Positions 57,338 to 60,010 of a stretch of 61,516 nt of DNA are shown one piece after another. The notes under the pieces are model-generated. The model saw only the letters and a program-made list of their open reading frames with translations. It was not told the origin of the DNA and did no database searches. The DNA comes from Patescibacteria group bacterium. Lineage in GTDB: Bacteria > Patescibacteriota > Patescibacteriia > JBHPGJ01. The position numbers and the translations under genes are program-made. The stretch is from NCBI GenBank assembly GCA_042570545.1, contig JBHPGJ010000008.1, positions 1 to 61,516 on the forward strand, read 5' to 3'. The first letter of the stretch is position 1; the number at the start of each line of letters is the position of its first letter.

Positions 57338-60010
57338 ATGTATCTTGAGAAGCTTGAAATAACTGGCTTTAAATCATTTGCCAACAAAACTACTTTAGAA
57401 TTTAACCCTGGACTCACTTCTATAGTCGGTCCCAATGGTTCGGGTAAATCAAATGTAGCTGACGCTGTCCGCTGGGTCTTGGGCGAACAAAGCATGAAAT
57501 CACTGCGCGGTAAAAAATCGCAGGATGTTATATTTGCCGGCACTGATAAAAAAACTCGTCTGGGGATGGCTGAGACATCGTTGTATTTAAATAATGAAGA
57601 TCGAGCAGCTCCCATCGACTATACTCAATTGGTGATAACACGCCGGGTTTATCGTGACGGACACGGAGAATATTTTATTAATAAGAATCCGGCTCGTTTG
57701 CAGGACATTCTACTCTTACTAGCTCAGGCCAACTTCGGGCAAAAGACGTATTCAGTTATTGGCCAGGGCATGGTTGATTCGGTATTGTCTTCCTCGCCGG
57801 CTGAACGCAAAACTTTATTTGAAGACGCTGCTGGTGTCAGGCAATACCAAATGAAAAAGGAAGAAGCGGTACTTAAGTTGCAGCACACCAAAGATAATCT
57901 AGTTCAGGCTCGGGCACTTATGCAGGAGATCGAGCCGCGACTAAGATCGCTGACAAGACAAGTCAGAAGACTAGAACGGCGTGAAGAGATCGAGAATAAG
58001 CTATATGATACCCAAAAACAATTTTACTCACGTCATTGGTCTGATATTGATGAACACTTTCAGGCCCTAGAAGGAGAAGTTGATGAATTTAATAATCAAA
58101 AACAAAATACAGAAAATGAGTTGAAAGTCATTCAGGTCGAACTTGAAAAAATTGAAAAAGAAAAAACGACCAATGAAGCTTTTCAGCAGTTGCAACGCGA
58201 ATATAATCTGATACTGGAAGAAAAAAATAAATTCATTGAAGAACAAGCTGAACTAAAAAGCCGGTTAGAGATCGGTGCACGGCAAGAAGGGGCGGCCGAC
58301 CTAGTCTGGCTTAACAAGCAGCAGGATGAAACAACAAGAAAGATCAAAGACCTTAAAGACGAGCAAGCAGTTATCGAGCAGGTCATCGTTCGCTTGACTG
58401 ACCAGTTAAAGGCTAAGGAAGTACAGCAGAATAAAATAATTGAAGAATTTGAGGGTTTCGAACAAAAAATAATCGATATTCGTCAACAGCTGAAAGATCA
58501 GCAAATTATTAAAACAGAAGACATCCGCTATGAAATCGATAAGCTAGAAGCGATCCAAACTTCGCTGGTAAGATTATTAGAAACAGATCAAACCGAACAG
58601 ACGATAGGTAAACTAAAACGGGAAGTAGATAATTTAAAGGGTCGTTTAAGTGATTTTCGACAGCGTATTGAAACCAGCCAAACCGTAGCTGATCCAAAAG
58701 ATTACCTGGAATTGCAATCTCAACTGGCTGAGCTATTTAAAACAAAAGATAATTTAGTAAATGAAGTAGCTACTATTAGAGTACAGGTGGAGGTAAAAAC
58801 CGATGTAGAGAAACGATTAGCCGAACAGATTAATAATCTGGAAGCGGAAAAACTTAAGATAACCAATCAAATAAAACAAGCTGACAATGCACCGAAATCA
58901 AAGGAAGAAGCTTATCAGCAATTTTTAAAGGCTAATGAAGATTTGCGTAAGCGTCTGGGCGATATCGATGGACGACTATCCACGGTACGCAAAAAGATAA
59001 GTGAATTTAGTGATGTAGAACAGCAGAAAAAAGAAGTATTATTTGCCCAGCAGAAAAAATTCCGTGATACTCAACGGCGTCTAAATGATATTGTAAATAA
59101 GCTAAATGAACGTCGAGTGGAACTGGCCCGTACTGAAACCCGTAAGGAAGACCTGGAAAAAGAAATGCGTGAAAATCTGCCCGCCGAACAGCTAGAAAAA
59201 ATCTTTGCTATGGCTCAGAAAAAATCTTGGGACAGAAACCTTCATCCGGATGATTTATCTACCGAGGTACAACGCTTAAAACACCAACTAGAATTAATTG
59301 GCGGTATTGAAGAAGGCACAGCTGATGAATATCACCAAACTGATGAGCGGTATAAGTTTTTATCAAAACAATCTACTGATCTTGATGAATCAATTAAAAA
59401 TCTAGAGCAGGCCATCATTGATTTGGAGGAAACGATAAAGAAGAGATTTGATGTGGCCTTTGAAAGAATAAATAAAGAGTTCCAGCGCTTCTTTAAAACC
59501 CTATTCGGCGGTGGACAAGCCCGGTTGTCATTAATAAAAGAAGTACCCTTGCTGGAGCCAAAAATCAATGATGATGATGCGGAAGAAGATAAAGAAGATG
59601 AGGTAGAGCTTAAAAAATCAACCAAACAAGAAAAAGTAATTACCGGAATCGATATCTACGCCTCTCCGCCCGGTAAGCGCCTTAAAGGCATAAGCATGTT
59701 ATCGGGAGGCGAAAGAGCGCTAACTTCAATTGCCCTAATCTGCGCGATTATCTATAACAATCCATCGCCCTTCGTAGTGCTGGACGAAGTTGACGCGGCG
59801 TTGGACGAGGCAAATTCCCGCCGCTTTGTGGCTATATTAGAAAAACTGGTCAATCGAACACAGTTTATCACCATCACTCATAATCGAGCCACCATGGAAC
59901 GGTCAAATATTCTTTATGGTGTGACCATGGGCGCCGATGGTGTTTCTAAATTATTATCAATGAAACTAGAAGACGCCGAAAACGTTATTAAGTCTTCTGG
60001 TAACAGATAA
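57338..60010 (+). CDS. smc: SMC-family chromosome segregation ATPase (short, no recognisable hinge)
   Basis: GFKSF, GPNGSGKSN, DAVRWVLGE, Q-loop IGQG, LSGGE, VLDEVDAALD. Follows rnc. Confidence 0.9.
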   Translation: MYLEKLEITGFKSFANKTTLEFNPGLTSIVGPNGSGKSNVADAVRWVLGEQSMKSLRGKKSQDVIFAGTDKKTRLGMAETSLYLNNEDRAAPIDYTQLVITRRVYRDGHGEYFINKNPARLQDILLLLAQANFGQKTYSVIGQGMVDSVLSSSPAERKTLFEDAAGVRQYQMKKEEAVLKLQHTKDNLVQARALMQEIEPRLRSLTRQVRRLERREEIENKLYDTQKQFYSRHWSDIDEHFQALEGEVDEFNNQKQNTENELKVIQVELEKIEKEKTTNEAFQQLQREYNLILEEKNKFIEEQAELKSRLEIGARQEGAADLVWLNKQQDETTRKIKDLKDEQAVIEQVIVRLTDQLKAKEVQQNKIIEEFEGFEQKIIDIRQQLKDQQIIKTEDIRYEIDKLEAIQTSLVRLLETDQTEQTIGKLKREVDNLKGRLSDFRQRIETSQTVADPKDYLELQSQLAELFKTKDNLVNEVATIRVQVEVKTDVEKRLAEQINNLEAEKLKITNQIKQADNAPKSKEEAYQQFLKANEDLRKRLGDIDGRLSTVRKKISEFSDVEQQKKEVLFAQQKKFRDTQRRLNDIVNKLNERRVELARTETRKEDLEKEMRENLPAEQLEKIFAMAQKKSWDRNLHPDDLSTEVQRLKHQLELIGGIEEGTADEYHQTDERYKFLSKQSTDLDESIKNLEQAIIDLEETIKKRFDVAFERINKEFQRFFKTLFGGGQARLSLIKEVPLLEPKINDDDAEEDKEDEVELKKSTKQEKVITGIDIYASPPGKRLKGISMLSGGERALTSIALICAIIYNNPSPFVVLDEVDAALDEANSRRFVAILEKLVNRTQFITITHNRATMERSNILYGVTMGADGVSKLLSMKLEDAENVIKSSGNR

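Follow-up and report, generated by a model that had tools for sequence, protein, structure and literature searches.

The smc gene at positions 57338-60010 (+ strand) of the window, which denotes the whole 61,516-nucleotide stretch of Patescibacteria DNA analysed here, encodes an Smc orthologue of 890 amino acids (plus stop codon) without a canonical hinge domain. The hinge counts among the domains that define an SMC and is considered essential; it serves dimerisation and DNA binding and, in some models, acts as a DNA gate. The Patescibacteria protein challenges this textbook status. Taken jointly, its orthology to bacterial Smc, the absence of the hinge fold, the all-helical hairpin model, the presence of ScpA and ScpB and the prevalence of this architecture in the phylum form a picture that we consider nearly certain. 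At the position of the hinge, the protein carries a helical tip of about 65 aa.

An Smc orthologue with a complete ATPase head

The reading frame is uninterrupted, which verifies the 890-aa product that had been reported from the sequence alone. With 660.7 bits it exceeded the cut-off (567.35) of TIGR02168, the NCBI equivalog model for bacterial Smc. The match came in pieces, the best one placing aa 2-448 on model positions 1-455, and the hinge positions of the model stayed unmatched in the genome search. In a Foldseek search the best matches of the product were the Smc head, coiled coil and joint, and its head could be aligned residue by residue to the head of Bacillus subtilis Smc in the structures 5xg3 and 3zgx (E about 1e-115).

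The N-terminal half of the head (aa 1-167, positions 57338-57838, + strand) was delimited by an alignment with B. subtilis Smc over aa 1-208, by invariant columns and by an AlphaFold2 (AF2) model in which it forms strands and helices with a pLDDT of mostly 86-95. It contains the Walker A motif G31PNGSGKS38 (57428-57451) and the Q-loop residue Q143. The C-terminal half (aa 724-890, 59507-60007, + strand), defined by the B. subtilis Smc alignment over aa 767-882 and by invariant columns, provides the signature motif L788SGGE792 (59699-59713), Walker B F812VVLDE817 (59771-59788), the D-loop D819AALD823 and the H-loop residue H848. The head motifs are all present, as claimed earlier, and proved invariant or nearly so among 119 homologues. 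An acidic, disordered insert of 32 aa (aa 735-766, 59540-59635, + strand) interrupts the C-terminal half. It corresponds to the gap between the pieces aligned to B. subtilis Smc (aa 647-734 and 767-882), has a pLDDT below 50 at residues 743-757 in the AF2 model and is gappy and variable across homologues.

Within the genome of this ultra-small bacterium (97% complete, 1.0 Mb) this is the only SMC frame. ScpA (8e-23) and ScpB (4e-42) are encoded by neighbouring genes on contig 3; both frames are open and code for 235 and 202 aa, respectively. Judged by its sequence, the window protein is an Smc orthologue and not of the RecN or Rad50 type. The description of the protein as a hinge-less condensin in the sequence-only reading is therefore supported by a sole Smc orthologue, both ScpA and ScpB in the genome and the absence of a canonical hinge fold (see below).

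The gene lies in a block with the order rpmF-nusB-rnc-DUF456-smc. The RNase III gene rnc (55744-56436, + strand; Pfam Ribonucleas_3_3, 6e-40, and dsrm) is indeed located upstream, as had been noted, and a single gene for a DUF456 membrane protein (56447-56932, + strand; PF04306, 1.2e-28) lies between it and smc. In other Patescibacteria loci (L034, L051, L084) rnc adjoins smc directly, and none of the other loci compared had the DUF456 gene next to smc. The domain ParB_N was not found in the window's own genome, likely owing to an assembly gap. Within the class, 59 of 61 genomes encode ParB, hinge-less ones among them, which indicates that the usual loader is retained; a link between hinge loss and absence of ParB was considered and rejected for the same reason.

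The arm tip in place of the hinge

Pfam analysis of the window Smc returned SMC_N (aa 2-870) and generic AAA families only, and SMC_hinge (PF06470) was not found at E<=10. It was also not found at E<=10 in a six-frame search of the whole genome, a search that was positive in 11 of 14 control genomes, and the hinge-bearing relatives of the same class were detected with E-values of 1e-24 to 1e-33. A custom HMM built from the hinge and its flanking coil recovered every canonical SMC and gave no match at E<=10 to any of the 26 hinge-less Patescibacteria SMCs. Weak PF06470 matches did appear in relatives (E 0.01-0.25, model positions 16-51); the two that were retrieved (G018, G027) lie in GyrB-like frames rather than in SMCs, and these signals are thus spurious.

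The AF2 model of the full-length monomer (pLDDT 82.1) points in the same direction. Between aa 143 and 726 it contains no strand, and aa 168-723 are helical with short breaks. Only 11 glycines occur between aa 170 and 723, and they do not cluster. The proposal of a missing hinge was thus confirmed on the protein, genome and fold level, and neither of the two objections raised along with it applies: no cryptic hinge was found by PF06470, the custom HMM or AF2, and deletion of the hinge by the assembly is excluded by the phylum-wide absence and by thousands of homologues with the same design, roughly 880-900 aa in length, on independent and often long contigs. The suggested continuous heptad helix between aa 170 and 730 stood with respect to its helicity but not its continuity, since AF2 placed discrete breaks at 274-277, 313-319, 388-392, 416-419, 448-452, 517-521, 614-615 and 629-636.

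The model predicts a long antiparallel coiled-coil arm of about 220-250 aa per strand, and the superposition of a fragment model on antiparallel hairpins, the Smc5/6 arm among them, agrees with this. The ascending helix (aa 168-387, 57839-58498, + strand; AF2) is broken at 274-277 and 313-319, and its entropy rises from 0.3-1.6 bits in the conserved head-proximal part to 2.9 bits in the variable distal part. The descending helix (aa 453-723, 58694-59506, + strand; AF2 and homologues) contains the breaks at 517-521, 614-615 and 629-636, ends with the neck helix 661-723, and carries Q460, which is kept in 118 of 119 sequences. Its residues 647-734 align to the C-terminal neck of B. subtilis Smc.

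Between the two helices lies the tip module (aa 388-452, 58499-58693, + strand), which was defined by alignment position, full-length and fragment AF2 models and family conservation. In a MAFFT alignment its ~65 aa sit opposite the ~190-aa hinge of the relatives L001 and L002. It consists of a break (388-392), helix A (393-415), a four-residue turn (416-419), helix B (420-447) and a second break (448-452), with helix boundaries that are identical in the full-length and the fragment model. In these monomer models the pLDDT of the tip is only 66-83, and that of the fragment 85 overall. The fragment superposed on long antiparallel two-helix hairpins such as p85 iSH2 and the Smc5/6 arm (TMq 0.6-0.69, rmsd about 4.5 Å), although these Foldseek matches lack statistical significance (best E 0.02) and indicate shape only. 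Four helices and three short loops had suggested a fold-back four-helix cap; because the fragment superposes over its full length on extended hairpins, this was dropped for the monomer. A four-helix bundle between two protomers is possible.

Across the 119 homologues the tip is nearly free of indels (gap fraction 0.023), carries hydrophobic heptads and is flanked by helix caps conserved in the family (P394-E395 and D452-P453). Position 394 is proline in 88 of the 119 sequences and position 404 phenylalanine or tyrosine in 75, and both are glutamate in the window Smc and its closest relatives; position 430, alanine in 97 sequences, is valine in the window Smc. Helix A shows additional conserved hydrophobic 'e' positions at 404 (F/Y) and 411 (V/L/I), more than a two-helix coil requires. 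With an entropy of 2.67 bits, compared to 2.86 and 2.66 in the flanking distal arm, 0.7 in the heads and 1.3 in the neck, the residues of the tip are conserved no better than the adjacent arm and far worse than heads or neck.

Distribution in the phylum and comparison with known systems

In a sample of 401 genomes of the phylum, 157 contained an SMC, and a hinge was present in ten of these and absent from the other 147. Hinge-less SMCs are hence the normal state in the phylum and not the oddity of a single gene, which the sequence-only reading had missed. As almost all sampled SMCs of the phylum are hinge-less, the SMC motor evidently runs naturally without the textbook hinge. Heads, neck, joint, ScpAB and ParB have been kept while the hinge was dropped. 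A homologue search returned 7988 sequences; the best 120 of these are nearly all 871-938 aa long, lack a hinge Pfam domain and are located on independent, often long contigs of up to 1.18 Mb. Phylogenetically, the window Smc belongs to a clade of Patescibacteria sequences (SH-aLRT 98) and is separate from the single Mycobacterium SMC (L085) and from the other sampled SMCs of non-Patescibacteria.

Proline-framed two-helix tips recur phylum-wide in hinge-less SMCs of 709-1070 aa, and their sequences diverge widely from family to family. When a profile of tip and distal arm (A4) was searched against 1.84 billion representatives, it gave only 132 matches with E<=1e-3, mostly to SMCs of 850-920 aa and at the same position. 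By this measure, tip and distal arm appear to evolve too quickly for the module to be traced beyond the subfamily. No non-SMC carrier of the tip module was prominent among the strong matches of this profile. Two SMCs of the same class, L027 with a helical tip and L064 with a hinge, have heads that are 80% and 73% identical and distal arms that share only 16-18%. At the sequence level, this contrast suggests a natural modularity of tip and hinge, and with its near-identical heads the pair is ready for swap comparisons.

Compared to B. subtilis-type Smc (TIGR02168; 5xg3, 3zgx, 5h68), the window Smc has the heads, joint-like arm breaks, ScpA/ScpB and the rnc-smc order in common. It differs in the lack of SMC_hinge, in the two-helix tip found instead, in its shorter arm (about 220-250 aa compared to 344 aa) and in the additional acidic insert of the C-terminal head. 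Bürmann et al. (2017, PMC5344682) replaced the hinge of B. subtilis Smc with the zinc hook of Pyrococcus furiosus Rad50 and observed normal growth of the resulting Smc(Zh) strain. The authors concluded that it does not matter which fold the dimerisation domain has, while Smc is inactivated when hinge dimerisation is lost. The arm length of the window Smc is bracketed by working mini-Smc arms of 253-267 aa and by a natural mode at 238 aa. Both proteins are Smcs with a hinge-free, structurally unrelated arm tip, natural in one case and engineered in the other. The sole cysteine of the window Smc is C802 in the head, which rules out a zinc hook at the tip; dimerisation through this tip is putative. 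As a natural counterpart of the chimera, the protein bears on what the hinge actually contributes, and on whether the ring has to be closed at the tip at all.

According to a summary in PMC4255302 of Deinococcus radiodurans structures (Pellegrino et al. 2012), RecN dimerises via three apical alpha-helices. In RecN as in the window Smc, the coiled coil that extends from the SMC-family head terminates in helices alone, and RecN is the best natural precedent for a possible dimerisation by a helical tip. The two are not orthologous: the RecN model TIGR00634 scored 45.5 bits, below its cut-off of 407.85, and the arm of the window Smc measures about 250 aa per strand while the coil of RecN is far shorter and RecN has no kleisin partners. 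The 50 best Foldseek matches of the tip fragment did not include the RecN coiled-coil structure. Rad50/SbcC proteins resemble the window Smc in overall length and in a head and coiled coil without a globular hinge, but the window Smc lacks CxxC and is accompanied by ScpAB rather than Mre11/SbcD. Rad50/SbcC family models scored 32-62 bits against cut-offs of 700-1087, and no CxxC near the centre was found in the 26 hinge-less Patescibacteria SMCs.

Our literature search retrieved no description of a hinge-less SMC architecture in Patescibacteria or the candidate phyla radiation (CPR); only a paper on a marine clade surfaced (Süssfeld et al. 2025, PMC12153180). It describes an ocean-metagenome cluster of 'hinge-less' SMCs with heads and coiled coil, without hinge or CXXC, which its authors argue to be an SMC variant and not Rad50/SbcC, and which branches with Actinomycetes-like marine sequences. 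CPR seeds were part of that data set, and Patescibacteria SMCs are not described there as hinge-less. The likeness to the window Smc (head and coiled coil, no hinge, no CXXC) is one of architecture only. Hinge-less SMCs are thus known from this marine clade, and the Patescibacteria case is a new and real variant.

How two protomers may be joined

The overall explanation that we favour, and consider fairly probable, is that the window protein acts as a functional subunit of Smc-ScpAB with canonical head, neck, joint and antiparallel arm, in which the globular alpha/beta hinge has been replaced by the all-helical tip. In the model, the arm strands break at the matched points 388-392 and 448-452, and two short helices cap the rod. 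Two tips would then associate, the simplest forms being a four-helix bundle or a side-by-side rod contact, and this pairing would take over the one indispensable job of the hinge, which is to dimerise Smc constitutively and to align the arms. Together with ScpA, two Smc would still form a closed tripartite ring or rod, albeit a smaller one, that would load and translocate on DNA via the usual ATP cycle. On the grounds of the model and of the analogies described above, we lean towards a tip that replaces the hinge as dimerisation element.

The tip might instead be a mere chain reversal that does not self-associate, so that protomers would be joined only at the heads by ATP-dependent engagement and by ScpA bridging neck and cap, in an open clamp or V and not in a closed Smc-Smc-kleisin ring. 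We consider this unlikely. It would fit the conservation of the tip, which does not exceed that of the neighbouring arm, the self-contained hairpin of the AF2 monomers, the strong differences between the tips of different families and the glutamates at the key positions 394 and 404. However, a bare turn requires only 3-5 residues, yet a module of fixed length (~60 aa) with matched breaks and capped helices is found; hydrophobic residues of helix A are conserved outside the a/d core; and B. subtilis Smc is inactive once hinge dimerisation is abrogated (PMC5344682). The far-reaching version, in which Smc-ScpAB of most Patescibacteria would form no closed Smc-Smc-kleisin ring and would organise the chromosome while joined at the heads only, is unlikely in our view; if true, arm-tip closure and topological entrapment in a tripartite ring would be dispensable for SMC function. 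In a weaker version, the tip may be a new, freely exchangeable self-association device that has changed places with the hinge, cassette-like, from one lineage to another.

Delegation of dimerisation to a separate protein that caps or bridges the tips seems improbable. Such a partner could bind to the invariant Q460 and to the exposed conserved hydrophobics on helix A, which is nothing direct, while no conserved neighbour of smc beyond rpmF-nusB-rnc was found in the loci compared, the whole-genome search revealed no hinge-like domain, and ScpA and ScpB are of ordinary size. A strongly diverged hinge at aa 388-452 that escaped the sequence models is very improbable: its position opposite the hinge of relatives speaks for it, but 65 aa are too few for a two-lobed alpha/beta hinge of roughly 150-190 aa, two independent AF2 runs returned helix only, and both PF06470 and the custom HMM stayed silent where the hinges of the same class were readily detected. 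Lastly, assembly collapse, a decaying pseudogene or another SMC-like ATPase (RecN, SbcC/Rad50, MukB) can be regarded as effectively refuted. The length of the protein does resemble that of Rad50/SbcC and weak NCBIfam matches to Rad50 and RecN models exist, but these reach 45-66 bits against cut-offs of 300-1087 in a protein that passes TIGR02168, lacks CxxC and has ScpAB encoded alongside it; the frame is intact with invariant catalytic motifs, and its close homologues share its length and lack of a hinge on independent contigs.

Several properties of the tip deserve mention in their own right. The near-absence of indels, the conserved helix caps and the extra hydrophobic 'e' positions of helix A count for a defined module. 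For a dedicated interface one might expect stronger conservation than the tip shows, which counts against the favoured explanation, as do the glutamates at 394 and 404 in the window Smc and its closest relatives, the modest pLDDT of the tip, the lack of significance of the Foldseek matches and the lack of a ParB_N match in this genome.

With 709-1070 aa, the hinge-less SMCs are small proteins and could be useful as minimal scaffolds in structural and single-molecule studies. There is also a gap in their annotation, since many of the homologues are filed in public databases merely as 'AAA family ATPase'.

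Smc heads, partners and the hinge region

The smc ORF (57338..60010, + strand) has an intact frame and encodes a product of 890 aa, of which SMC_N covers aa 2-870 in Pfam, with generic P-loop families besides. TIGR02168, the NCBIfam equivalog model for bacterial Smc, reaches 660.7 bits (cut-off 567.35) in several pieces, the best of which joins aa 2-448 to model positions 1-455 of 1181. In a PDB search, the B. subtilis Smc head/neck constructs 5xg3 and 3zgx match aa 1-208, 647-734 and 767-882 (E ~1e-115), and aa ~210-590 gave no match beyond generic coiled coil. Walker A (aa 31-38), the Q-loop (Q143), the signature LSGGE (aa 788-792), Walker B (aa 812-817), the D-loop (aa 819-823) and the H-loop (H848) are all in place in the alignment to these heads, which upholds the sequence-only reading of an 890-aa Smc with intact ATPase heads. 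In Foldseek the model groups with structures of the Smc head, coiled coil and joint, among them 5xei and 5xg3. The protein contains a single cysteine (C802).

A low-confidence, strongly acidic insert of 32 aa (INDDDAEEDKEDEVELKK...; window 59540-59635, aa 735-766) lies between two C-terminal head strands; it is missing in B. subtilis Smc and is gappy and variable across homologues. An antisense ORF of 133 aa (57214-57615, - strand) overlaps the smc 5' end and is almost certainly not a gene; its 'homologues' at other loci turn up because it mirrors conserved smc head-coding sequence.

The genes are arranged as rpmF-nusB-rnc-DUF456-smc, and next after smc comes a T2SSE ATPase gene in convergent orientation. 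The rnc-smc context described earlier thus stands, with rnc upstream and the DUF456 gene in between, and rnc-smc adjacency recurs at Azambacteria and other loci. The genes for ScpA and ScpB, for which a check had been proposed, are both present, adjoining each other on contig 3 with open frames. ParB_N (PF02195) was not found in this 97%-complete assembly, probably owing to an assembly gap near the origin; 59 of the 61 genomes of its class encode it, so hinge-less Smc occurs alongside the usual loader.

No match to the hinge domain SMC_hinge (PF06470) was found in the protein, even at E ≤ 10, or at the same threshold in six frames of the entire genome (27 contigs totalling 1.0 Mb, 97% complete); identical settings returned 11 of 14 control genomes as positive. 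We also built an HMM of the hinge and flanking coil from 14 canonical SMCs. It finds all canonical SMCs, mostly at 1e-62 to 1e-109 and more weakly for three divergent ones (down to 4e-8), as well as five hinge-bearing Patescibacteria SMCs (1e-25 to 1e-47), and none of 26 hinge-less Patescibacteria SMCs at E ≤ 10, the window Smc among them. In the full-length AlphaFold2 model (119-sequence alignment, mean pLDDT 82.1), aa 168-723 are helical and the region joining the head halves is free of strands; no Gly-rich stretch was found there. These searches bear out the suspected absence of a hinge and of a Gly-rich segment and revealed no cryptic hinge. The protein is the organism's Smc, with kleisin partners present, heads, neck and joint that look functional and an arm tip predicted to be all-helical. 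By descent and partners it is an Smc, but its architecture lacks the hinge; we therefore class it as a hinge-less Smc variant rather than a canonical member.

The helical tip and its proposed role

Two SMCs from the class of the window Smc that carry a hinge, L001 (1009 aa) and L002 (1026 aa), are 39-41% identical to it. The arms match on both flanks, and the ~190-aa hinge lies opposite ~65-70 aa here. The full-length model and a second AlphaFold2 run on the fragment aa 345-495 (pLDDT 85.2) agree on the elements of this tip: the ascending arm helix ends at aa 387 and is followed by a break (aa 388-392), helix A (aa 393-415), a turn (aa 416-419), helix B (aa 420-447) and a second break (aa 448-452), and the descending arm helix starts at aa 453. 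Over ~150 columns, the model of the fragment can be superposed on long antiparallel hairpins of two helices (the iSH2 domain of PI3K p85, 8i4v_A from the Smc5/6 arm, and HP0958) with an rmsd of ~4.5 Å and TMq of 0.6-0.69, a likeness of shape only that is not statistically significant. As this superposition spans the whole length, the monomer tip is predicted to be an extended rod end without a fold-back bundle.

Across 119 homologues the tip is nearly free of indels. Both helices carry a/d hydrophobics, and helix A has additional hydrophobic 'e' positions at 404 (F/Y; E in the window Smc) and 411 (V/L/I). Position 394 is Pro in 88 homologues (E in the window Smc), followed by Glu/Gln/Asp at 395, position 430 is Ala in 97 (V in the window Smc), D452-P453 is conserved with Pro in 93, and Gln 460 occurs in 118; basic residues at 427, 443 and 470 are further features of the region. 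At the residue level the tip as a whole is conserved no better than the distal arm (2.67 bits against 2.86 and 2.66 bits) and far less than the heads (0.7 bits) or the neck (1.3 bits).

We lean towards a role for the tip as constitutive dimeriser of Smc in place of the hinge. A module of fixed length with capped helices far exceeds what chain reversal needs, and the extra conserved hydrophobics would stay exposed in a two-helix coil. Furthermore, B. subtilis Smc is inactivated when hinge dimerisation is lost, and the Rad50 zinc hook, an unrelated dimeriser, restores normal growth (PMC5344682); in RecN, apical helices form the dimer (PMC4255302). The weak residue conservation of the tip and the departure of the window Smc from two conserved positions (394, 404) speak against dimerisation, and a tip that does not dimerise is an unlikely alternative; bridging of the tips by a partner appears less probable still. 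Arm length, too, fits a dimerising tip: the arms of the window Smc (~220-240 aa without the tip, ~250-270 aa with it) are near the natural mode of 238 aa and within or near the functional mini-Smc range of 253-267 aa (PMC5344682).

Distribution among Patescibacteria

A homology search with the window Smc returned 7988 relatives. The best 120 of these are nearly all 871-938 aa long and from Patescibacteria, with Kerfeldbacteria among the source names; none contains the hinge Pfam domain, and they sit on independent contigs of up to 1.18 Mb. This shared length and hinge absence contradicts a deletion of the hinge region in the assembly. Many Smc orthologues among the relatives are publicly labelled just 'AAA family ATPase' or 'hypothetical protein', perhaps under-called by annotation pipelines because of the missing hinge.

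The survey of SMC lengths suggested by the sequence-only reading covered 401 Patescibacteria genomes. TIGR02168 detects an SMC in 157 (frames of 715-1105 aa), of which 147 lack the hinge, including near-canonical-length SMCs (~1080-1105 aa). The other 244 gave no match at E ≤ 1e-20 with two candidates scored per genome, reflecting either many lineages without Smc or misses by this first-look filter. PF06470 occurs in 10 of the 401 genomes, every one from the window's class, in which 3 of 61 genomes have a hinge above cut-off. When 22 diverse SMCs were scanned directly against Pfam, SMC_hinge was found only in the four positive controls, and two-helix tips framed by Pro are visible across many families of hinge-less SMCs. 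The hinge-less design is a lineage trait and not an accident. Some Patescibacteria SMCs with a hinge measure only 859-871 aa (loci L003 and L014); arms of ~150-170 aa are therefore compatible with a full hinge, and hinge loss cannot be inferred from short length alone.

The literature searched held nothing on Patescibacteria SMC architecture and a single report of hinge-less SMCs, on a cluster close to Actinomycetes that is abundant in marine samples (PMC12153180). The hinge-less Patescibacteria Smc is real, widespread and open to experiment; its significance is tempered by the dispensability of the hinge fold already known from the laboratory and by the key mechanistic claim, the tip as dimeriser, being one that we infer.

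History of hinge and tip

In a tree built from the head halves only, Patescibacteria SMCs form a single clade (SH-aLRT 98). The five members with a hinge all belong to one clade of 14 rows (97) from the window's class, where they are surrounded by hinge-less SMCs, and the deeper Patescibacteria branches are all hinge-less, requiring at least 3-5 changes of hinge/tip state. The Patescibacteria hinges themselves form one long-stemmed clade (100) outside all sampled non-Patescibacteria groups, a weak test as the outside sample is mostly Bacillota. Either an early loss with retention or regain in one class or many separate losses would account for this distribution.

The head-tree sisters L027 (hinge-less, 924 aa) and L064 (Buchananbacteria, with hinge, 1039 aa) share 80% and 73% identity in the near-identical heads, 51% and 40% in the proximal arms and 18% and 16% in the distal arms, whereas the distal arms of L064 keep 59% and 41% identity to L002. 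Together with the helical tip of L027, these sequence identities indicate that the gene centre, comprising distal arms and apex, was exchanged as a cassette. Four loci (L027, L028, L032 and L036) come from records titled 'uncultured Gammaproteobacteria bacterium'; their SMCs fall firmly within the Patescibacteria clade of the head tree, and the labels look wrong.
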